The notes under the pieces were generated by a model that was given only the letters and a program-made list of their open reading frames with translations, did no database searches and was not told the DNA's origin. From Amphiscolops sp. MND2022 (lineage: Eukaryota), in NCBI GenBank assembly GCA_964187785.1, contig OZ076420.1, positions 19,034,001 to 19,098,000 on the forward strand: a stretch of 64,000 nt of DNA, in the 5' to 3' direction. The translations under genes and the position numbers were made by a program. Within the stretch, counting starts at the first letter, position 1. Each line of letters begins with the position of its first letter. Shown here one piece after another: positions 17,993-54,290 of the stretch.

Positions 17993-20900
17993 GTAAGGTT
18001 TTTTTCTTCATGGTTACAAAATTCAGTTTTGTATGGGCCGATGGAAAATGACAAAAATTAATTAGTAGGTACAACTAGTAGGTACAAATGCCATGTAATT
18101 GTTATCATTCACTTTCATTGGAAACTAGTTCAAGCTGGGTTCCAAGGTTCAGTTTTAAAGCTTCTCCTATCATACAAAACATGCTGATCATTCTTTGTCG
18201 TAACTAACAAAGCATAATTCCTAGCTAGTCATAGTATAAACGTACATGTATGGTAAACATGATAATCAACAAGCCGAGAACGGCATAAGTCGGCGCCATA
18301 TCTAAGGCTCAAAAATAGCAAAAGGACATCAAAGCGTCAAAAAACTCAAAGTGTCAAACAAAGAATTTCGAAACATTTTCAAAAAACCAAAAACAACCAT
18401 TTCGGATTTTTCATCATCCATTCTGTCGTAAAACACCAAAGATTGAAGGGGGGATGTCGCAGGCTGCCACTTGTGACGGGACTATGATTGCAATGACAGC
18501 TGACGGCTAGGACATTGCCCAGGGGACGCTCCGTACCTTTTAATCTTAAAACTAAAACTATTTTTCAAGACTAGTACTCAGTTTGTTTAGATATTGTTAA
18601 CGCATTTGATTTTGTATTAGTCTGTTAGCAATTGTTCAATGAACTGGTTTGATTTTGTAAAGTGATGTAAAATTGGAATGCAATATGTAAGTGAGTTACT
18701 ATACGATGCAAAGGAAACGTGTTCAAGTGCTGTAACGTCTTTTCTCGGCGAGGTGACTTGTTGGATTATTGCTGTCCAATCACGATGCAGTACTAGTATT
18801 TTTATTTCTGAGCAGTATATTATTTGGCCGTTTACGGCCAATTGACTCAGTCAGTCTACTATTAATTCGGACTCTAGTCAAATAGCCTGATTCCACCTAT
18901 TTAACTTTCATCGATTTAACTGCTTTGTTTAACTAGTAGTACTGTGTGCTTTAACAAAAGGTGCTCAAAACCATCTTGGTATGTCAAAGAATGTAATTGA
19001 AGCTGCTAAACCTTGATCTGTTGACAGTTTTAACCTTTGTTGCTATTATTGAAAGACCAGTATTTGGACCGATTAGGGCAAAACAATGTCGTTTATCCCA
19101 TGTATTTTGGCCTCTTTAGACCTACATCACAATAACATGAAACCAAGTAAACCAATGTTTTTACCCAGATGCTATTTTAGTCTCACGTGCAAACGCGCGT
19201 TGGAAATTGTTGCTACATTCTTCTAATGTTTAGATAATGGGCTACCACTGAGTTCATAAGTGTTTACAAACGATGCATTAACTTTTTCAAATATGTTCAA
19301 ACTATAGCGCGTCAAGTTCCTAAGAGGGTTAAAGTTACCCATTTGCAGTTTAAAATACCAACGCTGCTAGCCACCACCCTTTTCATGAAATTTCTTGCTA
19401 ACTCTCAGTATTATTTTGTTCATCGAAATGCAGTTGGAATGTTGTATACTCATACAATAACGAAAGGAATGTAATTGTCATGCCTCCTGGGGTATATATA
19501 CCTGTCCTCCTCATGAGACGGACACAATTTTCCAAAACCGTGTTAAGAATCTGACTCGTTCTAAATTCACAAAGTACAATTTCCCGATCTGAAGCAATTC
19601 AAATATTATTACTCGGATTTCTTCAATGCCTACTACAAGAAAACAGAAAAAGGCGAGGAAGTCCAGAGGACTAGAATTACTCTCAGATATATAGAATCTC
19701 GATATAATGCTAGGTGAGAGGCATTCTGAGAGAGATGAAAGTGCGAATAGTAATTCAACCAGAAGTCCGGAAAGTGTCACTAGTGACATGTTTGGAAATG
19801 GTAAAGAAAACTGATACTTGAATCATACAGAAATGAGGTCTGGTATTAATGCCGACCCCGGACAAAATTTAGCGAGTGCTAACTCAAATGCTGAGATCAA
19901 TAGTTTGTCGAGTGAGCTCAACTCTAGGTTGTCTCGAGAGATGGACGAGATGGCGGGCAGTGTTAATACTCAGATCCAAAAAGCAATTAGTGATGCTATT
20001 AGCAATCAGATATTGCCTCAAATACAGAATGCCCTAAGGGCCGTATCGGGTCTTATGACACAAAACAGATGGAACGTTCCGGCTGAGAGACAGAAAATTA
20101 ATCACGAAGACTACCGCAGTGAGACAACTAAAATCAACTTTAGAAGTGAGCCAACACGTGATTGTTTACTTGAAAATCATCAGGAACAAGCTTACGACAG
20201 GGGACCCTTCGGGAAATTTTTGTTAAATGTCTCAGAATGCCAAAAAACTGAAATGGGGACCCTTTGGGTTTTTTTCATCATCCAGCTGTCGTAAAACATC
20301 AAAAAATTGAAGGGGGCCCTTCGAGGAAAACTTTTTTCAAAAGAAGCCTCAAAATGCCAAACAAATGAAAGTGGAACCCTTGAGTCTCGCCCGGTGTTGT
20401 GTTTTACGAGAAAAAAAAGAAAACCCTTTTTGATTCAAGTTTGACCTTTTTTGACACCATAAATTTTCGAAGAACATTTGTAGAACTATTTTGGTCAATT
20501 TGTGTGGATTGAAAAAAAGAGTTACTATAATAGTCCTATGGTTGTCAGTATATGGTCCGTCTGGTTCCGTACTTTTGCATATTAGCACAAAGTTGTCAAT
20601 TGATGGGGTCAGTGATATATATTTTGGGTATTCTTAGCCATTACAATTCTTTTCACGACTGACAACCAAAAATGCAATTGTCAATTCAGAACATCATAGA
20701 CCCACCCATGTTAGCAATACTACAATAATCATCTCAAATAAAGGATAAATCTTCCCTAAAAGTGTTTAGATGAGCTGTTCTCTTGAAATTATACAATTTC
20801 CTTTTTCAACTCCACTCATGAATCTTCAGAGTTCTGACCAGCGATGTAAATGAACCGCATTGAATAAGGGTTCAAGTGGCTATCTAATGGCCGGTTCTGC

Positions 20901-26900: not shown

Positions 26901-29900
26901 GCAGAAAAACTAAATTATACCTGTTTCAGAGATGGGACTTATGCAACGGATGACTGTGGACAAAGCATAGCTGACGGCTACAAGCTGTTTTTACTTTTTG
27001 GGTTTGTGATCGTGAAGGCAATCGTTCCTATTGCCTTGACTGCAATCACATTGGTCATTGTTTGCGAAGTAAACAAGTACCAACATAGCTCCAGGAACCA
27101 ATCGTCCCCTACAGCTTTCGTGACCAATAGCTTTTCTGGGTTGAAAAAGATCCAGCTCTTCAAACTGTCTCAAAGTTTTGCAGGTTCATCGAAAAATACT
27201 TGAACTTGCCTCAAAAATTCATCCCCTGTAAGTTTTATTTTTAAAAAAAACCTGAGGGATCTTTTTTGAAATACCATGAGCATAAAAACCAACACGGTAT
27301 AAAAAACGTAGTGCAGACGCTGTCGCAGGCTGCCGCCTGCGATGGCAACATTTACACGATTGACCATACGAAGCCAACCGCCCTACCTGGGACGCTCCCA
27401 TTGTAAACCAAAACTTTCAAACATTTAGTATTATTTTGAACATGTAATATTAATTGATGAAATATATTGTCATTTCTTATGTAAAATACATTTGACAGCA
27501 AGCCATACTGACAGGCAGAAAGGAAACGTGTTCAAATGTTTGCCTGCTCAGTATGGCTAGCTATGCCGTCTACGGTCAATTGGCCAATCAGAGTGCAGTT
27601 TGTAATAGCCATCTTATTACTTATTACGTAACTGTGCTAATAACTATTTAGAATGGACCAAGGCGGCCAACTAACTTTGCGGGCCTTATTGTACTCTAAT
27701 GCTATACTTGATTGGTATTCAGTAATTACAAAAAGGACGAAAGCGGCTATGTGACATAGCCGTCCCAATTCACTGTATTAATTGTCTTGGTGCTAAGCAG
27801 TAAATAAGGCCTGTCATGGCCGGTTAGCACGATGAATACTCAAATGCTGTATACTTGCCATATGAAATTGGTATTCCAGTTAATTAGTGGCTTGAAGATG
27901 CAAATAACCCACCCCATGCAATAAACAGACATATACACTGTTAACATGTAATTGTTGCTCTCTCATATTATGATGGGACTGAATTAGAAAACCCCAACGG
28001 CCATACGCCGAACAGGGCCTTCATGAATTGTTGTGCATGTAAACTGTTGCTTGCATGAATTATACTTGTAAACAATTTGACCCATATGCGGATGAGACTT
28101 GTCGGGCCCTTTGATCTAGCCGCCCGCACAAGTCTAAAATGATGTCATGTTACTATTTATAGTGCTGACGTATCTATTTTTAGTTTGCGTTGCTATTTTT
28201 AGTATCATGACCGTTACAATTTTGCCTGTCATGCCCTCTGGGGTATATATACCCAAGTCGGCCTGACAAAGGTTAATCATAATTTTGCAGCTGCCTGATA
28301 CACTACGCTCATCTTGATTAATCTGAAAATAGAAGTATTTGTCCCCAGGAACAATTCAAATATTTTCTCCTGGAATAACATTTTCAATGCCTTCTACGAG
28401 GAGACAAAAGGCCAAGTCTAGAAAATCTAGAGAATTAGATATGTTGTCCGACTATGGCAACATGGACGTAATGCTGGGTGGCAGAAGTTCCAACTCTATA
28501 GAAAGAGAACTTGATAGCTTGATTAATGTCCCTGAGGGACAACGAGACTTTCAGTCCTTTCCGAACAGAGAAAATTCATCTCAAGAAAATGAGATTAGAG
28601 ACATCGATAGTAGAAATGAACCAGTCAGGGAAAGTAGACTGATAGAGTCTATCAATACACTATCTGGGGAAATGAACGCTAGGATGTCGCGTGAGATGGA
28701 GGCTATGATGGACCTAATGCAATCACAGATTACCAGGGCCATCAGTTCTGCTATAAGCGAGAGAGTCATTCCGGAAATACAGAATATGGTAGAAAATTTA
28801 CCTTTGGGTCAACACGGCGTTGAGCCGGGTACGTCCTTAAATGAGGATGGAATTGGGAATGTATGGAAGAACGCAGATACGAAATTTACAAAGAAGGACT
28901 CAAGGTCCGCTTGTGATCTGAGGGATTACACGGACAATGTTCCTTACATGGTGACAGGAGCTACCGAACTCCAACAGCCGATTCCTGAATTCCTCACAGG
29001 ACGAATTCACTCTCAGCCAGACCTCCAAAGACAAGAATCTACTCATGATACAACTCTGGATACAACTCTGCCAATAGCGGAGCCTGCCCCGGCAGAACAG
29101 CCACAAGATCCCATCAACCGATTGGCAGATGTCCTGGTAAACCTCCAAAATAAACCACACTCGATGACAATTAGACCAGTCACGACGAACCCCATGACAT
29201 TTGACGGCAAAACAGAGAAATTTGAATTGTTTGAAGATTTATTTCATACAATGATAAAGATGCAGCCTGCCATGACTGAACAAATGAAAATAAATCATTT
29301 TCATTCTCTGCTCAGAAAAGGAGCACTGCAAACTTTCCGAAATATAAACTCCATAAACCGTCAAACATTAGCAGACGTATTGGTCATATTCCGCAGAAAG
29401 TACGTCAAACCCGAGTCTCAAGCCACAGCTAAACACAAGTGGCACAGGCTCATCTTTGATCCCAACACGATGAAACTACCCGATTTTCTTGAGGAACTCA
29501 ACCAGGGTGCCGAGAAGGCCTTTGGGGAAAACGCCAAAAGCATGATAGACAGTCTCTTGTATGCTAAATTACCCCCAAAACTCAAAAGATCAGTCAATAT
29601 GGCTCGACTGGAAAACGGGACCTACGAGGAGATTGTGGCACATCTGGAACGGGAACTCGAGTTAAACGCATTAGAAGAATCTGATGACCAACCCATTGCT
29701 ACAATGGCTTCGTCGTCCAACAAATCCCGAAATTTACTATCTAATGGCATTGACACCAACAAAAATAACCAATGCTCATACTGCAAAGCAGAGGACCACT
29801 TCTGGAAAAATTGTCCAAAACTGAAAAAGAAGAAAGAATCAGAGGCCAAAGACGGCAAGAAGCCTCAACGACAAACTTATCCAGAATGTCCCACCTGCAG

Positions 29901-32900
29901 TAAAACCAATCACCCAGCAGAGAAATGTTGGAGTGGCGCTGGTGCCCATCTTCGTCCAAAAAGAAATAGACAGGACTCCACCAAAGACACGGAGCCCTCT
30001 GAAGACGAAGGCACTCGCACCAAGAATGAAAAATCCACAACATCCTCATCAGGCCAATCGAATTCTAAAAAACCTGAATCAAAAAACTAATTTTGCCACG
30101 ACTCCAAATCTCTGACCAAATGTCGATACGACAATATGTCATATCAGACCCAGATAATATCGTTTTCAAGCAATCACAAAAGGACATCACAGGGACCCCA
30201 TCGACTCTCTGGCAGCAGCAGATGGTGGAAGCCTGTACTCAAACTCAATACATTATCCACAGTGACCACCCATATCTATATCGACGTAATAACCTTACTA
30301 AAGACTCAGAAACCCAATTCCGACCCTTACAAACTGTCGAAGACTACAACCCCCAATACTACGACCCCGAGTACGGCAAAGACCCGTACTGGGATGATGA
30401 GTTATATGATAAACACAATTTACAATTTCGGAATGATGACTACCCGCCAACAGACGATGAGGATGACCCTGACATTGTAGACACCATACTGTCCCGGGCA
30501 CTTATCGAACAATGGCAACCAAATTTTGATGCAATCAAAGACCAGCCACATGCAGAAGAGACACAGGCCACACCTGGCCTCCTCGACGAGACAGCCTTCA
30601 TACATGTCCTCGTAACTAAAGAGGGAGAACCAGCGTATATACCACTATCCACAAACCTCGGACTCAAATACAAAAAACGGATGCTATACTTCCCGATGGA
30701 CTTTGGGGAACTAACCATAGACGGCCTCATAGACACTGGAGCTCACTCCAGCGCAATTCCGGAAGCAGACCTCAGGAAAATTCGCCTATTGGCGCCCCAA
30801 TCCATAGTCAAAGAGGGACCTGCCCCGACGTTTCAAATTATGGTCGCAAACGGACAATTGGAAACCCCAAAGAGCACTGTTGAACTCAAGTTCGAAGTCG
30901 GAGATATTGAATTCCATGAAATATTCATAGTAATGGAAAAACTGACTGGCCCTATCATAGGACTAATGTTCCTCCAGAGGAATCACACAGTACTGGACAT
31001 GCGACAAGGCATACTCAATTTCCCATATTTCTCGATGCAACTCAAAACGGCTGACCATAAATACTCTAACGTACTGGAACCAATACTTAACCCAGACGAT
31101 ATCACAATACCACCCAATGACCGCACCTTAGTAGAGATTAAATCCCAAATCTACAATGAAAATACGGTCACAGGGGTGTTGGAACCCAGTGATCTCCTCC
31201 ATGAAGAAGGCGACATCACATTCTGTGCCGCAATAGTCACATTGATTAATGGAAACGTCAACGTTCATATCAACAACTTTACAGACCAACCGTACAAGCT
31301 TAAAAAAGGACGACACATAGCAAACTTTTCCGTACTAACACCGGAACAGATGAAACACGTCAAACCAATTGACCCGGTGTCCACATGGCATCTCTTCAAT
31401 GAAAACGAAGAGGATGCGATCTACTATGTCAGTAGTCTACTCAAGGCTAATCGGAACAATGACCAATATGAACAACACTGGTTTCCTACGCCAGAAAACC
31501 CAGGGGACGAAGATTCCCATACTCCTATCCAACGACGAATCCTTCAAGAATTACGAAACCTCCAAGAAGCTGAACAATTGAATCCACAGAATGATGATGA
31601 GTCACGCCGCAAATTCCTTGGCAATTTCGACTGGAAAGACTCCATGCTGCAACAACATGAAATCAAAAAGATCGAATCGCTTTTAGTCGAATACCATGAC
31701 ATATTCGCACGACACAGATTTGACATCGGAATGAATGAAGAATTCACGGTCAAACTGACTCCTAAGGACGATTCGCCTGCTTACAGCCAAAGTCTCCCAA
31801 CTCCAGTCAATTTAAAAGAGGACATACTTGTCGAACTGGCCCTCTTACACAAATATGGCATAATAACTACACTGCCATTTTCGAAATACGCCAGTCCCAT
31901 ATTCGCACAGAAAAAGCCGAATGGGAAGCTAAGACTACTAGTCGACCTGAGGAAAATTAATAACTTCATTTCGGATGACTATATCAACAATAATCATCCG
32001 GTTAGTACCCTAACGGACGCTGCACAACATATGGCAGGAAAGAAAATATTCTGTAAACTTGATTGCTCACAGGCATATCACTGCCTGCCAATGGCGGACC
32101 AAAGGTCCGTTGAGATGCTCGCGTTCAACTTTGCAAGCCGCACCTTTGCGTATAGACGACTTGCCCAGGGCCTTAGCAGGGCATTATCAGCATTTTCAAG
32201 TTTTATGAGGGAATATCTCGATAAAGTTATCAAAGCTGATCAATGTGCCCAATATGTCGATGACATTGGCATAGCCGCCAATGATGCGGATCATCTCATA
32301 AAAAATTTGAAAGCAACCTTTGAGTGCATAAGGCATGCTGGCCTTAAACTGACAATGCACAAATGCCACTTCGGGGCAACGGAAATCGATTTCTTGGGGA
32401 GAACAATTACTCCGGAGGGAGTCAAACCACAAAAGGAGCGAATAACCAACTTCCTAGAAAAAACCAAATTTGCCAAATCTAAAAAGGCTCTACAAAGATA
32501 TCTTGGTTTCCTAAATTATTACAGGAACTATATCCCAAGATTATCTGAAAAATTAGCCCCTTTCTTTCAACTCCTCAAAAAAGACGAAAAAGTCCTGGTG
32601 ACCACATAACTCATACAACAGTTCAATGAAATCAATCGGGACCTCGACAAATGTAGCCAATTGGCCCTGAAGCAACCTTTGCCAAACAAGCAACTGGTCC
32701 TGATGACTGACGCTAGTTTCACAGCGGCCGGCTACGCCATACTTACCGAGGACGACCCAAACCAGAAATATTCATCTGTCAAAAAATCATACGCTCCAAT
32801 TGCATATGGCTCAAAAACGTTTACGCCATCGCAACTCAAAATGTCCATATACGCTAAGGAATTCTTAGCGATTTACTACGCATTCAAAGAATTTGGACAT

Positions 32901-35900
32901 ATTTTCTGGGGAGCCCCTAAACCGATTACCATCCTCACGGACAACAAATCGGTCACGAGATTCTTCCAGACGAAGATAATCCCTCCAACACTCTGGAATG
33001 CATGTGACAATGTAATACAATTCAATTTTGTCATAGCACATATACCAGGGAAAAACAACACAGCCGCCGACTACTTATCTCGCATGGAAATGGACCCCAG
33101 AGAGAAACTAGTCCTTAAAATCCGCGAAGACATAGAGACTAAGCCCATCGAGGTCAATGTCCAATCGGCAGGCGTTGCTGAAGAGGAACAGGTTTTCTTC
33201 ACGGAGCAAGATGATGAGACAGAAGCTCAAATTTGGAGCGTAAAAAACAAAACCGAACCAACCCAATCGACCAAGAAGGCTTTATTCAAATTGACGCAAT
33301 ATCCGAAAACATTGTAGATGAGATTACAAACTTTACCCAAAAAATGCGCAGAACGAATCAAATTTTACTTGAACAATCCAAAGACCCTATACTGCGCCAA
33401 CTCAAAGCCAAAATTCAGAACGAAGACTGTTCTGAAGAACTACTCCAGCAAGACATCCGATACAAACACTACCTTAACAACTTGGACCGAATAGTCCTTA
33501 AAGACGAAATAGTCACACGACAATATTATGATGAAACTGGGCAAGTCAAGTATCACCAAGTTCTCTTACCAAAACACCTTTTGACAGAATTGTTACAGGC
33601 CTTACACGGAACGGCGCACAAACACCCGGGTATATCGAAGATGTTACAAGAAATACGACAAAAATACTACTACCCCGGTATAGCAAAACACGTTAAAAAA
33701 TGGGTAGAAGGATGTGTAACTTGCGCAAAAGATAAACGGGTCCCAAACAACACGATAACGCCCGAATTGCTTAACTTGCCAGAATGGGACCTTGGACCAG
33801 AGGACGCAATGCAAATCGATTTACTCCCAAACTTGCCAACAAGCGGAGGTTACCAAACAGTGATGACAGCAATAGATGTCTTCTCAAGATATCTGTTTGC
33901 CTACCCGCTAGTTGAGGCAACAGCCTCTAACACGGCAAAGGTCTTAATAGACATCATGACAAAGCACTCATATTTGCCAACTACGATCATCACCGACAAA
34001 GGAACCGCTTTTACATCAAAAATTATTGCAGAGATAACGCAAGTATTGGGAATAACCCTAAAATGCGCAACGACTAAACACCCACAAACAATTGGCAAAC
34101 TCGAGAGAACTCACGCCTCATTGAAAACAAATTTGAAAATGGCCTCAGGGGAATATCGCCGTCAATGGCACAAATATTTGCCACTAGCAGTGCTCAATTA
34201 TAACACAACTTATCATTCCAGCATCGGTTGTGAACCGAGCAAGGTCTTTCACGGAAGAATTCCCTATAATGTTCTTGATCATAAACTCGGAAATAATCCT
34301 AATAAGGATTTCCTCCCGACTACTGAATTTGCTGAAGAATTACAACAGAGAACAAAAGTTCTCATTGACAAAACGAAGCATAACATTATGCAATCCTACT
34401 TGAAATATAAAGAATACTATGACCGAAAGGCCAAAGCAGCTCCTCTCAGTGAACAAGATTTTTGCTTTATCCTACAACCTAAAGCGGACAATCAAGGATC
34501 AAAAATACCATTCAGAGAATATCGCTGGATCGGTCCTTATCGAATTGAAAAGGTATTACCTAATGACAATTACATTGTCCGCCGGTTAAATACGAATAAA
34601 ACACAGAGATTACACCGAATTCGCCTGAAAAAGTTTGTTCCTAATACGATTTTAGAGGACAAATATGCCAAAGAGAAATTGCAACCAGATGATGAAATAA
34701 TCATACCACAAGATGATTTATACACCATCTCATGGGAAGCAGATTTTGACTACCATCTCTTCGAGCCGAGACGAGACGATAATACCGACGAAGAATCGCA
34801 AGCACCAGACAGCGATGCTGGTGTCACGACTAGTGATTACGTCATTTATGACAACGCTGATGACAACACGGCAAGGCCGAGGACGGCCACCAGCCGAGAC
34901 GGCACAATCACACGAAACGCAAATGACGTCACCGAACTGAATGAACGAACCAAAAAGAATGAAAATGAAGCGGGACCGAGTACGGCCGCTAGCCGAGACG
35001 CACCTATAATGCATGATGAACATGACGTTAGCGAGAATGCTGCGCGAGACGAACAAAGCAGCGAAATAGAAAGGCCGAGAACGGCCACTAGCCGAAATAG
35101 CCACAATGGTGGTAATACACCACCTAGTTCAGAAAAGAACGTGAATGACGTCACAAATGAATTAGAAGGCGAGAAAAACTCTCCTAACGAGGGGGATGAT
35201 ATTACCGTGCCCGGAATATCGAATGAAAAAGCAAATGAAAAAACTGATGAAAACTCTAGCCCTAGAGGGGGGAAATACAATCTTCGACCTAACCCCAACC
35301 CCAACTATACTGATGAATACAGATACTAGTCAGAAATGTTAAATTATGTCCCTATTTATTTTACTGCCCGAGATGGCATGTTTTTACTGGGACTACTCTG
35401 ACTTCTTTGACTCAAAAGAAACCTACTATATAAATACTAAAACAAGAAACAGAACGGAAATTTACAAATAGAAAAGTCTAAAATGGCGAATGTACACTAT
35501 GTACATTTAACTTTTAGAGCTTCCTTCTCGCAGTTCTTGGACTGTCTTTGAGATCTCACTAGCAGGAATGTCGCCAAAATAGGCCAATTTTTGAGCTTGC
35601 CCAGCAGCCCAATTTATCTTTCGCCCAGCAGAAGTTGAGACAGAGGATGAACGTGAAGCCGTGCTAACGCCAACCACGGGAGTTCCTTTCAAATTCTTGA
35701 AGGCAGCAGTAAGGGTCTTTAGGAAATTCGCCTGCCCAAAGACGTCGACGTGAACCCAAGGGTCTCCAGCAAGCTGTCCGGAACTAAATTGTCCCTCCAA
35801 TTCCTTGTAGTTAGCTAGAGCGGCTTCAGTGGTACAAACGGAAATCGCACTTGGGCAATTTGTCAAGTAGGATTGGGCGGGCAGTATTACCGCAGAAAGA

Positions 35901-38900
35901 CGGCATCGGGAATTGGAGGTATCGACATCCTGGAATTTAACGGCAGGAAGGGTTTGATGTCCCTCAGTTATGCAAAGGCAGCACAACTGAAACAAGCGAA
36001 AAAGCCTAGCACGACTTCGGAACTCAGTAATTGGAATAAGGAGATGTAACACGTCAGCAACAGTCACTGGGGAAGACTTAATGGAAGGGTAAGATTTGCG
36101 AAAGTAGTCCACAAACTCGAAATATTCATCCCGACAGTCATTACGGGAGGACTCGTCCACCCAGCCGCGAAGTCGAAAGCTGTCATACAAAGCGTTGAAG
36201 CAAAAGGATACTTGCTCAAGAGGTAATGTCAATAACACATGAGGATCGAAGCTACCCATACCGCGGACAATATTTGCGGTGAAGTGAATATCCCGAAGTA
36301 AAGACTCCAACAGAGTGACTATATATGCCCGGGCTTCAGTCCCAAAATTCTCCTGCTCCTTGGAGACCAACTCAGCCTGATTAGCGGGTACAGGATTTGA
36401 TCCCCTAGATTTCTCCAGTTTCGCTTGACAAACCAGATCAAGGTCACAGGTGAGTTTGAGGCGATGCAAGAAATCACGGATTGATAATTGCCTCAGATCG
36501 TCAGGGCACAATTGCAAGAGACCATTCCAGTCTGTATCGCTTGGGATACATTTGGGCAAGATGGCGCGGTGGCACAACCGGCGGATGAATCTGCAATATT
36601 GGCCATAAACGAAGAGGGTTGCATCCCGCCGTCCAGAGAGACTTCGTTCGAAACACTTGGCATCCAAACAAATTTAGAGTCAGATGCAAATCACCAGAAT
36701 CTACCAAATCCCCCACCCCATCACAAATGTGGTTATGCTTAAAGCCGTGATCGGCACATCAGCTGGTAGGTCAACTACGCTGGCGGTTCAAATAAAAATG
36801 AAGAAAAACTAACAATCGCGGACCAGCAAGGAGAGGAATTCAAGCTTGATGGTGAAGAAGTCATCTAGAATAATCTCCCATTCCAGGCTCTGAGGCTTAA
36901 AAGGAAATTTACCTCATAAGGATTACATCTTCCGAGATTACAGTGTGGTGTAGTTACCAATGCTGATCAACTAGAAAACGGCTAATAGCTACCTTATTCT
37001 TAGCTCCTTGCATCTTCTGGGTTGGGGCTATACTGGTCAGGTAGTCCTTGATAGCTTTCCAGCTTCTAACGAGCTCGGAACAGACGGCAGGGATCTTCTT
37101 GAGTTCCACATCACATGCTGTTATGGCCTACGGAACACAATTAAATAAGGAGAATTGCCTTTACTATTATGAAAGTGACCAGGAAGGAGTATCGACACCA
37201 GGTCAACGTCTAATGAAAAATTATGTTGGAAAATAAATCACCTTGCGAAGTTCAGGACTCTGTAGAGCCCAAGATTGACTGAGCCCGCCTCGGAGGTAGA
37301 CGACTAGAAACTTCAGTTGGGGAAAATGTCAATTCGACCAAAGATGTAGCCAGTCTGCAGTGCTGTGGGGTGCATTAACTCAGGAAGGGAGAAAACCTCG
37401 AAGCGGAACGGGTACTGAATCCCACGGTTGAACAGCCCACATGTCTCCAAAGCTCTGAAGACCATGGAAGAACACCCGGAAACACTGACAAGATTGGGCT
37501 TTGAGGACACAACTGACAGCAGACATGAGATAGCTGTTAAGTAACAGCCCGGATAGGGGTCAGCTTGATTGTGACGATGAAGTTCAACCCGCACGAGTGA
37601 GTCATCTCTCCAGAAACGGACGGACTGCACCGGTAGATGCCCTCTGTCGTGAACTCAATCGAGTACATCTTAGTAGCCATGATGTGACTGGAGATATCTG
37701 CGAGACCTCTCATGAAAACGTGATGGAAGACGTTCTAAAAACAAAACACAAATGTACAAAAGGGACGTCTTAGCCAGAGGCCACGTTGGATCTTACTATT
37801 AATTCTATAGACGAAGATTCTACTTACAGTAAGAGTTGCAGGTCCCCAATCGAATGAGGAAAACAAGGCTTGGTGGTTGGTGAACATGCCCACTCGAGTC
37901 CATAAGTTTCGCAACAGGGAAATATTGCCATCTTGCGGTACGAAAGTCCCAATCAATGAGATTAAGGTACTGGTCCGAAGGTCATCAGGGTTGGTTAGTC
38001 CTCCAATACTAGCCATGTAGTCATCGTAGAACGGGAAACGATCTCCTGCCTCGATCAGGGGGGCATCAATGAATAATGGTTTTTCTCGCTCTAGCTCAAT
38101 TGGAGTAAGGACGTAACCATCTTTCCCTCTGACATAGTGCGTAACAACCCCAGTAACTTCATCAGTCTCTTGCAGATGGGTGAACCTCCACTTTTGATCT
38201 TTCCGGAGATGTCCTACTGTCTTATAGTGTCTTAGAATCTCCCTGGCGCCTTTTGAGAAAATAGAGACATTAGTTTTACATAGCATGCAGTAAAACTTGA
38301 ATTTATTGTGGACGGGATCGACGGGGCCAGATACGAAGGTGCGGGTCCATTTGATGCCCTTGTGGACTTTCCGGGCCCTTGGAGTTAAAGACAAAGGATC
38401 AGATTCACTCAGGCAATCTGTGCCAGAACTGGACCCCAACTGGTAAGGATCTTCATCTGTATTGAAGGCTCCACTAGTGTAACCATCTGAGACGTGTCCC
38501 TCAAAGTTACTCTCATCTCCTGAACTGTCAGTGAACGGCCGTGCTGGAGTTGCACACCGCTTGGGCATAGGCCTTTTCTTATCCTGGGGAGCTCCCGAGT
38601 AGCATGGAGCAACAAAGATTTCATCATGTGGTAGGACGAAAGTACAGATTCGTCGGAAACGGTCCTCAGGACAGCGTGCATCTCATCTGCGGTAAGAGCG
38701 ATGACTGGTTGATCTCTGGGTAGTTCAATGGGGCGAGTGTCCTGAAAATACTTCTTGATGACTAGTTTGCCCTTTGCGGAAAGTTGCCTATCGGCGCCGT
38801 CTAATTTGGCTCGATACTGCTCCTGTTCGGAATCACTGTGCCCTGAGTCTTCATGGAATCCTTCTTATAGATCAGGGAAAGTAGTAGAATCCAAAATGAC

Positions 38901-41900
38901 ATTCGGAGCGACTGGTGGGTAAACGGCAACGCCAGAGCTGTCCATTAAATCTTCCATATCTGTGGTGTCGCCATATAATCCTGGTACTTCCTCTGTAGAT
39001 TCAGTCTCTTTGTTACTGCCGGCCCCTGTCTCAATGTTTGTCAGATCATTCCTCACGGCAATGGGCTCTGACACAGAGGCTTTTAGAAAGGGGATGCTGA
39101 CAGTGACCATCTGGGCAGTAACACCTGGCTGACTTGGCAGTGGACTTATGATCTCAGCCTCGGGTTGGGACATTACGTCAAGGGTCCTTTCAATAAATGC
39201 GGTTACACTTTCTTCAGTAGACCTGCTGCCTTCGGACACTTGGGGAGAAGGCCTGATAAGGCCTGATAACTCAACGGTCTCTGGAGTCTCAGTTTCATCG
39301 TTCCCGACAACTGGAGCGGTAGTGGGTTCTGGCGAATTTTCCTCTGTTGTCATACCTAAATGAAAAGAGATAAATACATGCGGACAACTTCCTGAATATG
39401 ACTCCATCCAAACCGCAGTAAAATCTTCCGGAAGTGAAAAGGAATAAAACATAACGTCTAAATTGCATCGACGAAAATGGACAGGAAGTGCATGAACGAG
39501 ATGAAAAGCCTTGATCAAGCTTATTTCCGTTCAAAAATTAAAAGACCAGATAGCTTACCTGCAGTTGTTGGCCAATTGGGAACTGAGGGAGTATGACGTG
39601 AAGATCTTTGACGTATTGAAATTCTACTGCAAACCAGGCTAGAAGATCCTGAGGGACCAAATGTCCTGATTGGGCAAATCTTTGGCAGTGAAGAGGGAGG
39701 AGTAGGTCTTGATGACGACGAAAAGGAAGATCTGGACGAATCCGGCAGCTGGACAGCGATCCTGAATGAGGGGATGAGAGGCAGTATAAAATTCAAACAA
39801 TGACTCTGTACTAAATAAACAATGGATAAATACGAATGTAAGTAATGTAATGAATTGACAATTGAAGAATTGAAAATGATTGCGATTGCAGTAGCAAAGT
39901 TGGAGTTCGTGGCAAACTGGATTTGATGTCAAATATTTTTACAATTATGGGAATTATTTTGTGGATGGAATCTGCCAGAGAAATCCACATTAGTTATATT
40001 TCGAAACATGCATTTTCATTATTTTATTACCTTAGTTATTTCATTATTTTTAGTTATTTTATTATTTCCTTATTTGGATTATTTTTTTTAATTCCGCCAT
40101 ATTGAAAAGCGGACTGAGTGGGCAATTCCCATTGGCTGTCGCGGCGATGCGCCGCGCGTGGCCTTAAAACTTCATCACCCTCTCTTGAAATTCTCAAGTG
40201 GATATCAAGTGGAGATAAACACTAGACGAAGTCCTTGAAGGTTCTTTGCCGACTTAGGCAAGCTGAAGTTGATCGTCGGTCAACAAAGCAGAAAGCGGTC
40301 CATATCAAAGAATATCTTGGAAAGCTTAGTCAGCGAAACATGATGCGGGAAACGAAAGACCGGGAAAATGTGAAGCAAAACCATCGAGAAACTGAGAAAT
40401 GAAAACCGCCATTTGCTTCCTAACTTCCAAACTAAACAGTTGCTCTACTCAAACCGAATTAAAATTGTCCTATCGCATTCAAAATTGCAAAAAAGATAAT
40501 AAAAGATAGATTTATGGCTCAACGATTTCCTGAAGACTTCATCGGCGCAGCGCCCGAGGGCATAGATATCATCTGCCTGTCCAGCGACGAAGAGGAGGGA
40601 ATGTGTGACCTAAGCATGACTTCGGTGCTAGACCTTCAACTGTCATCGGAGGACGAAGAAGAAATAGATGACGAAATCATGATGATGGCCCAGTGTGTCG
40701 AGATGGAATTATCATCACCCATCCCAGTGCCTGGTCCATCCACAGCGCTGAAAATTAGAAACGAGGCCCCCCGATATAACCCACCAAGGTACGGGACCTC
40801 CGGGGCGAGTTTTGCAACAAGGCTTACTCTTGACCAATCCTTTTTCTCATTAGGAAAAGGAAACGGCCCAATACGGCGAGACGACCGAGTGCGCAATAAT
40901 CACCCTATCAAGCTGTGTAGGGAAATCGTTCCCATGGTGGACACTCCCATGTCGCCCCCACCAGAAGAGAAAGGACCAACTTACGACACCTACTCAGCGG
41001 ACGGTCAGGGCGAGATTACCCAGCAGTCATTGGACGCAGTTGCAAACCATTTCCAAGGAATGGAGATTGAGACGAACAACCCTATGGCAAATTACTCAGA
41101 TTGCGTGATATGTGGGAAATCTACATTACAAATCCAGAGTGAAGCTGTCACAGACTACTTGCGCAAGACGGCCATTTTGGGAGAATCGGCAGATCAACTA
41201 GAAGCGCGCAAAAGAGCCTTTTTGGAAGGAATGCAAGTGGGCACTTTCTTATTGCTACCAGGGGGAGTGTCGCAGGCTGCCGCCTGCGATGGCAACATTT
41301 ACACGATTGACCATACGAAGCCAATCGCCCTACCTGGGACGCTCCCATTGTAAACCAAAACTTTCAAACATTTAGTATTATTTTGAACATGTAATATTAA
41401 TTGATGAATTATATTGTTATTTCTTATGTAAAATACATTTGACAGCAAGCCATACTGACAGGCAGAAAGGAAACGTGTTCAAATGTTTGCCTGCTCAGTA
41501 TGGCTAGCTATGCCGTCTACGGTCAATTGGCCAATCAGAGTGCAGTTTGTAATAGCCATCTTATTACTTATTACGTAACTGTGCTAATAACTATTTAGAA
41601 TGGACCAAGGCGGCCAACTAACTTTGCCGGCCTTATTGTACTCTAATGCTATACTTGATTGGTATTCAGTAATTACAAAAAGGACGAAAGCGGCTATGTG
41701 ACATAGCCGTCCCAATTCACTGTATTAATTGTCTTGGTGCTAAGCAGTAAATAAGGCCTGTCATGGCCGGTTAGCACGATGAATACTCAAATGCTGTATA
41801 CTTGCCATATGAAATTGGTATTCCAGTTAATTAGTGGCTTGAAGATGCAAATAACCCACCCCATGCAATAAACAGACATATACACTGTTAACATGTAATT

Positions 41901-44900
41901 GTTGCTCTCTCATATTATGATGGGACTGAATTAGAAAACCCCAACGGCCATACGCCGAACAGGGCCTTCATGAATTGTTGTGCATGTAAACTGTTGCTTG
42001 CATGAATTATACTTGTAAACAATTTGACCCATATGCGGATGAGACTTGTCGGGCCCTTTGATCTAGCCGCCCGCACAAGTCTAAAATGATGTCATGTTAC
42101 TATTTATAGTGCTGACGTATCTATTTTTAGTTTGCGTTGCTATTTTTAGTATCATGACCGTTACAATTTTGCCTGTCATGCCCTCTGGGGTATATATACC
42201 CAAGTCGGCCTGACAAAGGTTAATCATAATTTTGCAGCTGCCTGATACACTACGCTCATCTTGATTAATCTGAAAATAGAAGTATTTGTCCCCAGGAACA
42301 ATTCAAATATTTTCTCCTGGAATAACATTTTCAATGCCTTCTACGAGGAGACAAAAGGCCAAGTCTAGAAAATCTAGAGAATTAGATATGTTGTCCGACT
42401 ATGGCAACATGGACGTAATGCTAGGTGGCAGAAGTTCCAACTCTATAGAAAGAGAACTTGATAGCTTGATTAATGTCCCTGAGGGACAACGAGACTTTCA
42501 GTCCTTTCCGAACAGAGAAAATTCATCTCAAGAAAATGAGATTAGAGACATCGATAGTAGAAATGAACCAGTCAGGGAAAGTAGACTGATAGAGTCTATC
42601 AATACACTATCTGGGGAAATGAACGCTAGGATGTCGCGTGAGATGGAGGCTATGATGGACCTAATGCAATCACAGATTACCAGGGCCATCAGTTCTGCTA
42701 TAAGCGAGAGAGTCATTCCGGAAATACAGAATATGGTAGAAAATTTATCTTTGGGTCAACACGGCGTTGAGCCGGGTACGTCCTTAAATGAGGATGGAAT
42801 TGGGAATGTATGGAAGAACGCAAATACGAAATTTACAAAGAAGGACTCAAGGTCCGCTTGTGATCTGAGGGATTACACGGACAATGTTCCTTACAGACGC
42901 AATGATATAAAATTGAACGAGAAGATCAGAAAAATACTAGACTTAGAGGATAGCGTCCTAATTTACTACCACTTATTACGAAAGTAGTTCCAGCATATCA
43001 TAGCTATGGTTGCACACCCAGTTAGAAAAATTCTCAAGATAAAAACAAAATGATCTACTTGAAAAAGCAAAAAATCCTCAGAAAAAAGAATAGCGGACAA
43101 ACGGTAGCCATTGTAAAAAACGCTTCAATTGGAAACTTGATGACTACCCAAAAGTGTTCCGGACATCGAAAGGTAAAAAGTATTTTAAGAAGGCGGCCAC
43201 AAGTATGGCAATAAAAAACTGTACACTATAGAAATCAGCATTACTGCTGAATCCACCGGCAGAAATGGCTTACATGTTTTAGCAATTAAGGGATTGATCA
43301 ATGGTGGATCAAACAAGACGGCAGCGTCTCAAGTCGGCGCCCCTCTTAGGACTCAAAAAGCGCAACGTTTTAAAAGTGTGCTTAGGTCATTTTCGAGTAA
43401 AATTTATCATTGGAGTACCAAACAAGTGACAGTTAGATAGTACTAAGTTACCTTAAACAAATGCTTATAGAAATGTTTCAGTTCGCTGGTCTCCGCAACC
43501 TCGAAAAGCGGAACCTCGACTTCTTTTTTAGTGAAACGCAGCGTTGGATATAACGCGAAACAGTCGTGTATACCGCTCGAGGGTACACCATTCTAGGGTT
43601 TTGTTCAGTTTTTCCCGGTAGGTCTCTAAGATGGCAACTGAATGCATTGCGAGTACCGCAACCTCGAAACGTTGAATCCACTGATCCCAATGGTGGGGGC
43701 TTTTCTACGTCTTGGCAGTAATCGCCTAATCCAGATAAAGGTGGATTAGGGTCTTCGTTTGATGCTCGCAGCGCCATGTTAAAGGTTGCTCGAGACAGTA
43801 AGAAACAAGACGGGAACGTCTAAAGTCGGCGCTATATCTAAGGCTCAAAAAGCGCAAAGTTTTCTAAATATGCTCAGGACGTATTCATGAAAAGATTTGA
43901 AAACAAAGTGTGCCTTTCATGTTCGATATGACTGGAAAATCACTGTTTTCCGACTGGGAACAAATTAAAATTTGAAAATTTTTTTGAAATTTTTTTTTTT
44001 AAAAAATTCGAAAATGTCGCATAGTGCCGAAAAATGAAAAGGGGGGGCCCTTTGGGATTCATTAACATACATTCTGTTGCAAAGTATCAAAAAAATCGAA
44101 GGGGGGACTCTTTTGAGACCTTAAAAAATTTTCGAAAAAAAATTCGCACAGTGCCGAAAAAAATTGAAAGGGGGGAGGGACCCTTTGGTCTCTTCCGGTT
44201 TTGTAGGTTACGTAAAAAAGGTAAAAAATGAAAGGGGGACCCTTTGCACTAAGTTTCCATTGGCCTGACTTGGCCTGAGTAGTCTTATAAGTTTCTGTAA
44301 AAAGTGGTACATACGCGATGAGCTCTGTGGTCTGACGAAAAAAAAAGAAAAAAAACTAGCCACTGTAATAGTCGGGCTTTTTTCCTTAAAGGAAAAGGCG
44401 CCGACTAAAAAGAGTAGTGTGTAACTATGAATTAAGGCGCATTAAGGTGCGAATGACGCTTCTTTCTATTTTGGCACTTCAGTTCGATGTGACAATTACG
44501 GGTTGTTTACCAAAATCAGATAAGTGACATATTTATAACTTTTTCACACTCTATCACACATGAAGGAGGCAAAACGAGAGCGCAGGCAATAAAGAATGAC
44601 CAGGAACGTTCCTGCTTTGCAAAACTGCTTCGAAACCAGTGGAATTTGAGGTGATGTTAAAAAGAATAACGGGAGTTTGAATGAATACTCAGAATGAAAG
44701 AACATGGGATGCTTTTGGTGACAAAAACCGAGACCGTAAGAAATTTACAGCGTATCTACAAACCACACTTTTTCAAATTATATCATTCCAAGTTGCCTTT
44801 TTCTGCTATCAGAATCAAAAACAAACAAAAAACTTTCTTTTGTGCAGTTTATTGTTTTCGGCCTGCTTTCCCCAGCACAATAGATCCTATTTTTACAATT

Positions 44901-46990: not shown

Positions 46991-47269
46991 AAAAGTTCCG
47001 AAGAGGAGACCTGTGGACTCGAAAAAATGCTTGAAAGCATAAAATAGAATATTCGATGAAAACGTTTATTTAGCCCTCGACGGACATCGAATTCAGTATT
47101 TCAGAATTTAGTAACTCTTTGATATCTACACAAGAAACGGAAAAAGTCAAACTTGATGAAACATTCCTCAACAGAATCTCAAATAATCACGCACTTGTGG
47201 TACCTACGAACTGAAATTAAAACCATTTGTATTCGCCACTTTTACTAATTTTTCCACTATTTGAATAAT

Positions 47270-50200
47270 GTTTTTTTTATTGTCACTGAGGACATAACAC
47301 CTCTACTCGGAATGGATTGGATGAAGAAATTCAAACTAACGATCGGAAGAATACAATTGGCCGACAACAGCCAATCAGAACGTGAGAAAGTATTCAACAA
47401 ATTTCCGGACCTGTTCGAAAATAACGAAACGATAAAAGACGCCGAAATAAACATTCAATTAAAGCCGGGACATTATCCGGTAAAACAAAAAGCTAGACCG
47501 GTACCACTACATCTACAAAAAGGACGAGAACTGGAAAGACTGATAAAATCCGGACATTTAGAAAAAATCAATAACGTAGATGAAGATTGCTTTGTTTCAC
47601 CAGTAGTTATAACAGTAAAAAGCGACAAATCGGTGAAAATAGCATTGGATTCGAGAAAATTGAATGACAGCTGTATTAAAATGAGACCCCACATGCCGAA
47701 TATGGAAGAACTGTTAAACCAAATTTCGGTAGAAATAACACGCGACCGAACACTACAATTATTCATGTCCAAAATAGACCTGGTTTACGCTTACGGCCAT
47801 ATGAAACTATCGGAAGAAACAAGCCGACAATGCGTATTTGCACTAACCGGAGGAAATTTCAGCGGATACTACCGATTCAAAGAAGGGTTTTACGGACTCG
47901 CCGATATACCCACAATACTCCAAGAAAAAATCGACCGAACACTCGAATATTGCACACCGGCATGGTTAGACGACATAATTGTAGTAACACGAGGAAGCAA
48001 ACAAGATCACGAAAAGAAACTATTTGACGTATTAAACAAATTAGAGAAAGCCGGATACCGGGCAAGTAAAAGAAAGTCTGAATTCTTTATAAACCAAACA
48101 AAATGGTTGGGACACGAAATCGACGAAAACGGAATTAAACCGAACGAAGAAAAAGTGGAGGCAATACTACGGCTGAAACCACCGGAGAATACAAAAGAAT
48201 TAAAATCATTTCTCGGAGCAATACAATACATGGCAAAATTCTTACCGAAGCTTTCGGAGAGAACTGATAAAATGAGAAAACTACTGAAAAAGAATGAACC
48301 ATGGATCTGGAAAGAAGAACAACAAAAAGATTTCGAAAAGATAAAACAAATGTTAACCGAAGGACCATGCCTAGCACACTACGCAAAAGATAAAGAAAAC
48401 ATAGTGACAACGGATGCTAGCACAACCGGCCTCGGAATAACATTATGGCAGAAACAACACGACGGGAACACAAAACCGATAGCATTCGGTAGCAGATATT
48501 TGAACGACACCGAAAAGAAATATTCAATATTCGAATTGGAATTATTAGCAGTTGTTTGGGGTTTAGAAAAATTCCGATTTTACCTTTACGGAAAGACAGT
48601 ACACCTGTATACAGTCTACCATCAAGCGCTAGAACCATTAATTAAACGGAACCGGTGTAATAAACAATACAGCGCGAGATTAACACGGTGGTTAGAACGA
48701 CTAACGCACTTCGACATATCAATTCAACATATCTTTGGTAGCAATTTGAAATTTACAGATTACTTGAGTAGAAATCCGGTAGGGGGAGCCACGCCAGAAG
48801 AAAATTACGAAGAAGAATACGTAATTAACATATTAACCGAACACGCGGAACTGAACGTGAAATACGGACCAATATTCGCCGACCAATCAGAACACACCGA
48901 AAACAGAACAACATTACATAACCACAAAACCGAGACACAAAATGAGCGCAAAGAGAACCAATCACAAACGAATAGAATATTCGAGAACAAAAAACGTGAA
49001 CAAAATCGAACAAAACAAAATAACCACATCCGGGCAGTCCGATATTAGCACTCTAAAAACCAGCAGCAAATCAATTATTGAAATCAACGACAAAATGGAC
49101 CGAGAAAATTTCTATCATTGGGGTGCAACCCGAGAAATTATGGATATAATTCGACGACGAAATAAAAGCCCGGAGACAAGAAGGCTAGTAGACAAAAGAA
49201 TTGCGCTGTCGAAACCGGGTACCCTGAGACGCCGGTACGATCACCAAAGCCAACGAACGATATTCGCATCATCCCGACCGAACAAAAGGAGCAGAGAGGA
49301 AATCTCGGATATCGATGCCGAACTAATGAGACGGCAAACAGGCTAGGTGGAGGCTATCAACCACTGCAAGAAGAAACCGAAAATAATCCGGAAGAAGGAG
49401 AAACTGAGCAAGAACTGGAAGATACGGAAGAAGATAGCGTTATAATGCGCGGAGATAATCTACCGATTGTAAACCTATCCAAATACAATACGGAAGGCAA
49501 AGAAGCCAAATACATACAAATCAACCACATTGTGGGAAACATGACGGCAAACAAGAAAATAACCGAAGACAATATCAAAAAAGCGGAGTTCGAATTCATG
49601 CTGGATTTAAAGACACTAATTTCAAAGACCGCAATAGATCCGGAATTAACCCGGGTCAGAACAAGCATGAGACGACAAGATCGAGAAACCGCACCAGACG
49701 GATACAAACCGGTGTTGGAAAAGCTATCTATTCGGTGGGGCCTTGTATTCGTCGATGACCAGATAGTGATACCAATCGACTTGAGAAGAAGATTGCTAGA
49801 CGTCTTACACTTCGGCCACTCCGGAAGGACAAAAATGGAGACCGAAGCCAAAATCTTCTGGTGGCCGGAGAAGAAAAATGACATTGAAACAAAAGTGAAA
49901 GACTGCACCGCCTGCCTTGCATCAGGAAAATGTTTAAAATATCAACTACCGAAAAAACTTTTCGGAAAATTAGAAAAACTAACCGAACCCGGACAGGAAT
50001 TACAAATCGATTTTACGGGAAAACTACACAATAAAAACATCCACGGAGATGTACAAATACTGATCGCCGTAGATAGATTTAGTAGATGGCCAACCGTAAA
50101 AATTTGTAAAACCTCGGAGACAAAAGAAGTAATACAATTTTTATCAACCAACTTTAATTTATACGGAATACCAGAAAAAATATCAGATAAAGGGGGCGCC

Positions 50201-51262
50201 TTTATCTCAAAAGAATACCGTGAATTTTGTAAAAACCGAAACATAGAAATTGAATACTGCACACCCCGAATTCATACGGGAAACGGAACAGTAGAACGAG
50301 CAATCCAAACATTGAAAAACCTGGTAATAGCAAATATGGAAGACGGAGAAAATCTAACCGAAAGTGTATACCGAGCATTACGAGTAATGCGGTTTACCGT
50401 ACACACGGGGTTAAAGAAAACACCTTTCGAATTACACCACGGAAGAAAACCGAGAACCGAACTAACAAATATCGTAATAGACGGTAAAACATATTTATCT
50501 GATTGGTCAGAACTTTCCGTTTTAGCACCAACACGGCCGAAAATCCCGATATATGTTGGCCGTGACGCAGATGGCGAAATCACGAATCACATCGTGATGG
50601 CACGCACAAAAGCGGAAGAGAAGCAAACAGCCGAAGGAATGAAATCACCGAAAAAGAAAAATTCGGTTAGCTACCCTTTTCAATTTGTAGAAAAGAATCA
50701 TAATAAAAAATCACTTGAAGGAAAATTCCAAAACAAAATCCAAACCGCGATAAGCGGAACCGAAAATACTGTGAAAACAGACACCGGAAAAATAATAAGC
50801 CGAAAGTTTATTTCGGGCCCACTATTTCAGACCGAGAAGAAATCAAGGCGGGAACAAATACCGCTACCAGAAAATGAAATCGAGCCGAAGAACAGACACT
50901 GTCTACGGGGGCTGGACGGAAAATACGGCCGCTGGGATGAAATCTTACTAGACATACTCAACGGCAAACTAAAAAGTGTGCAAAACCGTAGAAAGACGGA
51001 GACCGACACCGAAGAAGAAGACGATGAAGATGACGAAGAAATGCCGGAAACAACGGAAAGAGAGACGTATGACACCTCAGAACGAAACGGCTCATACGTC
51101 CCTATACGAACAAATCCGGAGGACGATGCTCTGCAACTCCGCACTGACGGAGAAATACCGGGTGAGAATAAGAGCAATAACATAATTCGGCGCTCTAACC
51201 GAAATATAGTTAAACCGAACAGATACGGTAGTGTACCATACACCGGAAATTTCTGGGGATAA
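47270..51262 (+). pseudogene. pol: Pol remnant (protease end, RT, RNase H, integrase) with at least two frameshifts
   Basis: RT AWLDDII, RNase H VTTDAS/ELELLAV, integrase LHFGHSG...CTAC, LQIDFTG, SDKG, NGTVER. Spread over ORFs 47261-49048, 48942-49346 and 49445-51262. Confidence 0.9.
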
Positions 51263-51459
51263 TTAAAAGTAAAATATGTTTGTTACAGGAACATCGTGGA
51301 ACCGACATAAAGGAACTCCGAAACCCGACATCATACAAAAGCCAGCGGACTTTATCCCCAGTGACCCGGAGCTAACACCAGACGCACCGAAAACAATTTC
51401 AGCATCGAAAACCCTCTTCGATTAGACAAAGATATCAGAGAAGGAGACAGAGGGGGAAA

Positions 51460-52436: not shown

Positions 52437-54290
52437 TGTCACAAGTTGCCGATTGCCAAGGAAACTTTTATCGAATTCCCCCGGAGGACGTTAATTTAAC
52501 TCTGCCGCCGGGAGTACTTCCCATTTGAGCAACGGGAAGTCAAGTCTACAAGCTTATACCAGCAATTCATCAAAACAATCAATAAAGCTGAGCCTCATAC
52601 TTTTACATTATCTTTGTACAATTAATATTTGTACGGTTAGTCATGTAGATACATTTGTCACAGTGAACCAGTATGTTGCAGTTAATTTAGCATGTTGGAA
52701 GTACACTTTGCTTTAGCATGTTGGAAGCGTGTTCAGCATTTTAAAATGTGAAATATAATCAGGCTGTGAGGCTTAAAAGACACCCGTTCGATTAAGCCAA
52801 GGCTTTGGCTTACCCAGCGGGCTTCCTTGTGCTATTTTTTAACCAATCAGGAAGTATTCTTACCTCTAGCCAAACGGGCACTGGGTCCGTTACTTTCACC
52901 AATGCATTCAATTAAGCGCTTGACTCATAACTTATGGAGTAACATGTTAACAACATTACGGCGGTATTTTGATTTGAAAGGAGGTGTGCCGCCTACATTC
53001 TTCTGGTGTATTTCCTTCGAAGCGATGACAATGTGCTATAAACATCTTGAGCAGATGATGATATAACCCTGACATTGATGGGTAGTTTTAGCCCAATAGC
53101 TGCCAAACTAGCGTGTTGTTCGTTCTATTGCCCCTATATATAAAGCAAAGCACCACGTCCGGTGGGATCAATCAAATGATAACCTTCAGCAAATACAGTC
53201 AAAATTTGAAGAAACTTGAATTTTATGATTTTTTGTTGTATTTCCAATTACCCTTTGGTATACTCTGTTCAATTATTCACTATTGAAAGGATATTGATTT
53301 CTTTTAAATGCCTTCACCTAGAAAACGAAAGCGAACGAAAAGCGTCCTAGACAGTGGGATATGATGTCTGATTTAGAGAATATGGATGTTATGTTAGGAA
53401 GTTACTCTAGAAATGAAGTAGAGAGCCATCAGGATGAAAGTGAAATAGAAGTGGTCTTTGGGTCAGCAGAATGAAAACCTTTTCAATGAAGATTTCCGAC
53501 CTTTACTAAAAACGAACATTGGAGAAAGCATCCAAATTACTTATGAGACTGTTAGGATGACTAATTTTGAGAATACCAAGTCAAGCGAAACCTTGATGAC
53601 ATTAGAATGGACTGGAACTCTCAGATATTAAAAGCAATCAACTCAGCATTAAAAGAACAGGTCCTTCTTTCCCTTCAGAACACTCTTGGAACGCAGGAAA
53701 CAGGATTAAAACTTGTAGGAGAACGCGGAAAAATTGTCTCAAACAAACCCAAAACTTAGTAAGTAATCAAGGTCGCCTCGCGAGGGAGAGCTTCAAAAAC
53801 TCCGACGAATTCTNNNNNNNNNNNNNNNNNNNNNNNNNNNNNNNNNNNNNNNNNNNNNNNNNNNNNNNNNNNNNNNNNNNNNNNNNNNNNNNNNNNNNNN
53901 NNNNNNNNNNNNNNNNNNNNNNNNNNNNNNNNNNNNNNNNNNNNNNNNNNNNNNNNNNNNNNNNNNNNNNNNNNNNNNNNNNNNNNNNNNNNNNNNNNNN
54001 NNNNNNNNNNNNNAGATTGGACTTGAACTCTCAGGTATTAGAAGCAATCAACTCAGCGTTAAAAGAACAAGTCTTTCTTTCCCTTCAGAACACTCTTGGA
54101 ACTCAGGAAACAGCATTAAATCCATATGTTAACCTATGGTCCAGTGTGCTACGCAGGAGCCCCGAAGTTGAAAATTGTAGCAGAACACGGAAAAATTGTC
54201 TCAAACAAACTCAAAACTTATTAAGTAATCGAGGTCGCCTCGCAAGGGAGAGCTTCAAAGACTCGGACGAAAGCGATTTAGATTACGACA
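52437..54290 (+). mobile_element. Diverged LTR of the 27321 group, spanning the assembly gap
   Basis: Starts tg-tca-caa-gtt-gcc-gat-tgc (SQVADCQG...LPPGVLPI*), has a TATA at ~53135, a decayed gag start (atgccttca...DMMSDLENMDVMLG, ~53308-53400) and ends ...gattacgaca. The flanks (tatat, gtttg) do not form a TSD. Confidence 0.75.
53814..54013. other. Assembly gap (200 N)
   Basis: Run of exactly 200 N. Confidence 0.99.

Follow-up and report, generated by a model that had tools for sequence, protein, structure and literature searches.

A selected accessory gene ending inside the long terminal repeats of Ty3/Gypsy elements in Amphiscolops sp., with a predicted hairpin at the repeat border

Coding sequence inside a long terminal repeat (LTR) is known from mouse mammary tumour virus sag, foamy virus bel/bet and Ty1 GAG. 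The layout described here resembles that of primate lentivirus nef, a gene overlapping both the polypurine tract (PPT) and the unique 3' region (U3) of the LTR (PMC11076291). The nearest retrotransposon case is that of the plant Ty3/Gypsy elements Grande, RIRE2, Retand and Athila, which carry conserved sense and antisense open reading frames (ORFs) without database homologues between pol and the 3' LTR, the one in Grande having its own promoter (PMC7264820). We analysed a window of 64,000 nt from Amphiscolops sp. MND2022 (GCA_964187785.1, contig OZ076420.1, positions 19,034,001 to 19,098,000, forward strand; window coordinates are used below) holding a full Ty3/Gypsy element with an accessory gene, ORF3, that crosses the purine tract into the 3' LTR. 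Unlike nef, ORF3 belongs to a Gypsy retrotransposon without env, its tract is 8 nt long or absent and its start is likely non-AUG, and no sequence or fold similarity to nef was found in Pfam, PDB sequences or a fold search with a weak model. No crossing from PPT to LTR is described for the plant ORFs in the accessible part of PMC7264820. In contrast to sag, bel/bet and Ty1 GAG, coding sequence here overlaps both LTR ends, given that gag starts ~560 nt inside the LTR and passes through the LTR end and the primer-binding site (PBS; 28387-28960). A partial literature search yielded no matching description of PPT-less elements, of PPT-spanning retrotransposon ORFs, or of accessory proteins bearing a SUMO-interacting motif (SIM). 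We narrowly prefer a combined reading, in which the LTR starts carry the ORF3 tail together with a frozen 24-nt predicted hairpin that likely sets the second-strand start, and ORF3 likely binds SUMO and counters silencing.

ORF3 is a selected, clade-wide gene. Its open frame (40463-41353) crosses the 8-nt purine tract and ends 86 nt within the 3' LTR, the crossing into U3 recurs in every subfamily examined, and the ~289-aa protein has its last 26-30 residues in the LTR start. A preliminary description of the window had read the LTR starts at 18455, 27321, 41268 and 52437 as this tail, in the frame from LTR base 3. All four translations are correct, the 27321 and 41268 tails differ by a single residue (I/T), and a search of both strands of the window with the short LTR-start pattern returned these four sites only. 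The end motif, reported there as common to two families, is present in all three; most relatives of the 18455 copy continue to a G-T-L-P end, so its stop at codon 18 represents decay. No upstream ORF accompanies the 18455 and 52437 LTRs within the window, the purine-rich flank 5' of the 18455-20199 solo LTR being host DNA, while internal-region relatives of both LTRs carry ORF3 upstream (7 of the 29 fetched for 18455; one of four, frameshifted, for 52437).

Searching the organism's own genome with the ORF3 protein gave 140 top-scoring matches at 58-100% identity, 112 of them without internal stop, and a group B query gave 150, of which 146 lacked one. From 139 ORFs of at least 230 aa with a recognised junction we defined 29 subfamilies at <80% identity and kept 26 for statistics. 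Across 11 disjoint subfamily pairs, the proportions of synonymous (pS) and nonsynonymous (pN) differences were 0.705 and 0.182 for whole ORF3, and 0.588 and 0.188 (p = 6e-23) for the tail past the hairpin, while U3 3' of the stop required gaps to align in 10 of 11 pairs. ORF3, reverse transcriptase (RT) and integrase (IN) trees give the same three groups, A, B and C. The gene also occurs in lineages that this genome lacks: two metagenome contigs (L272 and L273) hold such ORF3 lineages, and matches here to the database homologues P0076 and P0094 do not exceed 46%. As sequence matches, genomic context aside, the ORF3 profile hits 649 clusters at 50% identity. Some points count against this picture of selection: searches returning top-scoring copies favour intact frames, three of the 29 subfamilies were dropped before statistics because their tails fell outside 25-31 codons, synonymous divergence (dS) is near saturation and makes the ratios rough, and tail pS lies below body pS.

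The proposal in the preliminary description that ORF3 is an old, selected feature of the clade rather than a recent capture agrees with these data, as the gene is clade-wide, mostly open, under purifying selection including its LTR tail, congruent with RT and IN in its tree groups, and present in lineages beyond this genome. Its age is relative and carries no date, given that RT identity within the clade remains at 87-98%, with four-fold degenerate sites saturated between groups. An env-like protein or a recently captured host gene would also lie in sense between pol and the 3' LTR, as ORF3 does. However, no transmembrane segment was found (best 19-residue hydropathy ≤1.37 in 26/26), 97 members had no Pfam match, PDB sequences, Atlas and phage records gave none, and a Foldseek search of viral and PDB structures was empty, with a weak query model. 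Together with saturated synonymous sites and clade-wide occurrence, this makes such an origin scarcely credible.

The beginning of the LTR behaves differently from the remainder of the gene. The preliminary description had taken the shared S-Q-x-A-x-C start, retained despite strong DNA divergence, as a sign of protein selection. Strong divergence holds for the LTR bodies, but the first 25 nt are nearly invariant DNA; the start is conserved as reported, yet being frozen at the nucleotide level it does not prove protein selection, and protein-level evidence resides in G8 onward and in the region upstream of the LTR. Synonymous sites vary freely along ORF3 but are frozen between LTR nt -4 and +25, where pS falls to 0.089 over ~25 nt of the S-Q-A-A-A-C-D region (0.09 vs. 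0.71; 11 disjoint pairs; p = 3e-29). Gly -1, Val, Ser, Gln, Ala4 and Ala5 keep to one codon almost without exception (22-26 of 22-26 rows for those other than Ser), conserved ORF3 residues elsewhere use all their codons, and the Gly after the motif is free again. The stretch is therefore dual-coded, under both protein and nucleotide constraint. Constraint by the integrase attachment (att) site alone, which the preliminary description had considered as an alternative, is ruled out, given that the inverted-repeat match between the LTR ends is no longer than about 7 nt compared with ~25 nt frozen; moreover, the tail past the motif is under protein selection. A need for the S-Q-A-A-A-C-D-G residues alone, as first supposed, is very improbable: the tail is selected as protein, the motif Cys is invariant in 26/26, and C/T changes at Cys and Asp suit codon degeneracy as well as pairing, but the four-fold degenerate sites of Gly -1, Val, Ser, Ala4 and Ala5 are frozen, changes from Gln to Arg and from loop Ala to Pro or Ser are tolerated, and the junction pS largely refutes it.

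The frozen stretch probably acts as a plus-strand RNA hairpin. LTR bases 1-24 are predicted to fold into a 10-bp stem (z = -3.3; 0/200 shuffles), equalled by only 12-67 of 3072 synonymous codings, and pairing is retained in 95.6% of 270 cells vs. 22-65% for slid partners. Exchange between G-C and G-U is common in the stem, a double change to A-U for G-C at synonymous sites is shared by three related copies including 52437, a Gln-to-Arg change retaining pairing occurs in 8 of 166 LTR starts, and two contigs from lineages missing in this genome have the same junction nucleotides. Several observations argue against the hairpin: stem covariation is no better than in shuffles (55-401 of 500), single mismatches are fixed at pair 9 (five of 27 rows) and at pair 5 (the L218 family), loop bases 13-14 hardly vary, a constraint unneeded for a plain hairpin, and the 18455 and 52437 copies lack this fold (z = -1.0 and +1.1). 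Since the motif with its GGCC loop is also a near-perfect 24-bp palindrome, readable from either strand, a rival is a double-stranded DNA site (an extended att site, or one bound by an element protein as a dimer) or a palindrome for RNA dimerisation, with no priming hairpin. The conserved loop bases and the fixed single mismatches of some subfamilies would suit it, but variation is one-sided, positions 20 and 23 switching freely between C and T while their partners stay G, as plus-strand G-U pairing allows; ~7 nt at most recur at the 3' LTR end; and the loss of the purine tract would be left unexplained. We consider this rival unlikely. Pairing of the LTR start with the primer tRNA-Leu was rejected, 46-119 of 300 shuffles performing equally, and no conserved long-range partner near the PBS or 5' end was found across 10 elements.

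Second-strand priming is taken to require the purine tract, which also serves in the annotation of LTR elements. In group B, the longest purine run in the 20 nt 5' of the LTR is 2 nt in all 42 ORF-bearing copies, compared with runs of 4-8 nt in 97/97 copies of the other groups (group A has 8 nt, group C and the remainder 4-8 nt). 5' LTRs, solo LTRs and target site duplications (TSDs) place the group B border with certainty, and three elements have LTR pairs 99.9-100% identical with 5-bp TSDs; group B inserted recently without a purine tract, with an RT 87-89% identical to that of group A. A purine run ending ~51 nt upstream in some subfamilies was rejected as the primer, given that it follows Arg, Lys and Glu codons and is mismatched with the LTR border. 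Ty3 shares the pol architecture and a tRNA-primed minus strand, but has a 14-nt, all-purine PPT (PMC11381356) vs. runs of 2-8 in this clade, and PPTs are given as 8-49 purine-rich nt elsewhere (PMC7264820). A possible mechanism, which we propose tentatively, is that RNase H would cut at the U3 border, self-pairing of the downstream RNA into the hairpin would release it from the DNA template, and the upstream fragment would prime the plus strand whatever its purine content.

Translation of ORF3 probably starts at AUU. Coding-type conservation begins 6-13 codons 5' of the first ATG, at AUU or AUA in a CAAA..G context, with pS 0.70 and pN 0.19 after this codon and pS 0.66, pN 0.60 and 12 stops before it. 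AUU or AUA occupies the site in 21 of 23 subfamilies with the start motif and AUC in none of the 23 (p = 4e-4), a purine stands at -3 in 23/23, and an upstream in-frame ATG occurs in 2/23; L272 keeps AUU, and L273 has ACG at the same place. A conserved near-cognate codon, a strong context, coding selection starting there and no AUG further 5' are the marks of a non-AUG gene, and ORF3 shows them, the 2/23 with an earlier ATG aside. On the other side, the start motif is missing in three of 26 representatives, CUU or UUA occurs in two, and AUC stands at the matched site in three further copies. That the protein is made from a short internal transcript is about as likely as not. In most subfamilies a CAGT/CATT motif precedes the AUU by ~25 or 50 nt (40430-40460 in the window) and may be a transcription start or splice acceptor.

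As for what ORF3 does, an acid-flanked SIM-like motif occurs in 25 of 26 subfamilies vs. 2.3 expected, in forward form in groups A and B and in reverse form, at another site, in group C. This count is tempered by the pattern having been chosen after viewing the alignment, by its presence in 27 of 43 full-length database homologues and by SIM cores being common (PMC4476178), and we rate SUMO binding by the motif as slightly favoured. SUMO is required for piRNA-guided silencing in Drosophila (10.1101/533091) and the host genome has a SUMO gene, from which we guess, with some doubt, that binding may relieve silencing of the element. A role as replication helper (nuclear import, or integration tethering via SUMO-rich chromatin) or as U3 transactivator is nearly as likely as anti-silencing, though taken singly it too is on the unlikely side. 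The basic N-terminal extension and acidic region would fit such a role, divergence shared by ORF3 and U3 but not by the homogenised gag-pol is what one would expect of an activator matched to its promoter, and plant accessory ORFs have been proposed to act so (PMC7264820); yet no DNA-binding fold was found in Pfam, the structure model or Foldseek, and deep allelic diversity on near-identical pol also suits host conflict. Four Cys and a single His show little or no variation, one of the Cys lying inside the LTR tail, and these residues may bind zinc. In the structure model most of the chain is disordered, and a helical hairpin following C-x2-C is predicted with confidence; being poor (predicted TM-score 0.31) and leaving the LTR tail unplaced, the model gives zinc binding no support.

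Two subfamilies (L133 and L134) share gag-pol with the window element (27321-42895) at 95-98% identity. Differences from them at four-fold degenerate sites are 0.03-0.11 in pol and 0.50-0.73 in the accessory genes, which are at synonymous saturation, indicating that ORF3 alleles are far older than the gag-pol that carries them. The 3' ORF of the antisense accessory gene has diverged no less rapidly than ORF3. Between these divergent genes, a non-coding block (39818-40300) is 88-95% identical where the flanking genes are 54-75%, and may be a bidirectional promoter or packaging signal. The Tf1/Tf2 and Tosmo1-3 mosaics likewise combine a nearly uniform pol with blocks that have diverged deeply, which is ascribed to inter-element recombination; in those, gag and part of U3 diverge (PMC10085805), while here gag-pol is shared and two accessory genes and U3 diverge.

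Table 1. Features of the 64,000-nt window and of the element carrying ORF3 (PR, protease; pLDDT, predicted local distance difference test)
Feature	Position	Strand	Remarks
Full Ty3/Gypsy element, two 1628-bp LTRs	27321-28948 and 41268-42895	+	LTR identity 99.57%; TSD GACGC
5' LTR	27321-28948	+	Contains copy of ORF3 tail and gag start (ATG 28387)
PBS	28949-28960	+	Complementary to 3' end of host tRNA-Leu; gag reads through
gag and pol (PR, dUTPase-like, RT, RNase H, IN)	28387-35329	+	pol in three frames in window copy
Antisense accessory gene(s)	35507-39530	-	Fragmented in window copy; 3' ORF present in 11/12 other elements tested
ORF3, 289 aa from likely AUU start	40484-41353	+	First ATG 40514; spans purine tract, stops 86 nt into 3' LTR
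CAAA-AUU-G context and basic 10-codon N-terminal extension	40480-40513	+	Protein-level selection; layout also in L272 and, with ACG, L273
SIM-like motif (hydrophobic core, then Ser/acidic run)	40568-40597	+	Motif definition from PMC4476178
ORF3 conserved core: H-P-I-x-x-C, T-P-x-S-P-P, invariant His, C-x2-C, predicted two-helix hairpin	40901-41265	+	Residues 214-253, pLDDT 89-98
8-nt purine tract, encodes Pro-Gly-Gly-Val	41260-41267	+	Missing in group B
Predicted 10-bp hairpin, near-palindrome, LTR nt 1-24	41268-41291	+	Codons V-S-Q-A-A-A-C-D
Remaining LTR-encoded tail (G-N-x-Y ... P-G-T-L-P-L stop)	41292-41353	+	Conserved as protein
3' LTR, 1628 bp	41268-42895	+	TSD GACGC directly after
Group B solo LTR	18455-20199	+	TSD GGGGA; tail decayed, stop at codon 18
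Solo-like LTR related to group C	52437-54290	+	N gap 53814-54013; no matching TSD; hairpin decayed

The element in the window (Table 1) has the domain order of Ty3/Gypsy, gag followed by PR-RT-RNase H-IN, with TG...CA LTRs, 5-bp TSDs here and in most elements checked, and a PBS matching the host tRNA-Leu; among the named Gypsy clades it may resemble Mag. The gag start is retained in solo LTRs. A dUTPase-like domain lies between protease and RT (30078-32609; E = 1e-4, just at the Pfam cut-off). The antisense gene (35507-39530) has about 700 and 390 codons and a C-x2-C...H...H finger-like motif, also present in L131 and L132, and gave no Pfam match. With regard to the primer, tRNA-Leu 3' halves with CCA adjoin an LTR end at six loci (L249, L250, L252, L258, L259 and L243) and reach about tRNA nt 38 in several, as though the primer tRNA had been copied well beyond the usual 18 nt; a large tandem array matching the 3' end of this tRNA lies near 35.6 Mb (G000:C8), and there are 630 matches genome-wide. 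Elsewhere in the window, a second, unrelated Gypsy pol (47249-51262) sits just 5' of the 52437 LTR, a third gag-like ORF with a zinc knuckle occupies 59380-61944, and long inverted repeats (1-426 and 2384-2809; 91% over 429 nt) likely mark a DNA transposon.

In our study, the best reading combines a nef-like layout with a protein that likely binds SUMO and counters silencing, and with a hairpin that likely fixes where the plus strand begins. A stronger version, which we regard as improbable, is that this clade replaced PPT priming by a hairpin start at the U3 border, which would have freed the tract for an AUU-initiated, SUMO-targeting anti-silencing gene, with old alleles of that gene reshuffled over a common gag-pol. 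In its layout, this env-less element converges on the arrangement of lentiviral nef. Should the SIM reading be true, ORF3 would be a candidate for an animal transposon protein that counters SUMO-dependent silencing, and a single genome offers at least 26 of its old alleles for comparison. Finally, the young, high-copy group B, lacking the tract, offers a natural test of the real requirements of RNase H and the plus-strand primer.

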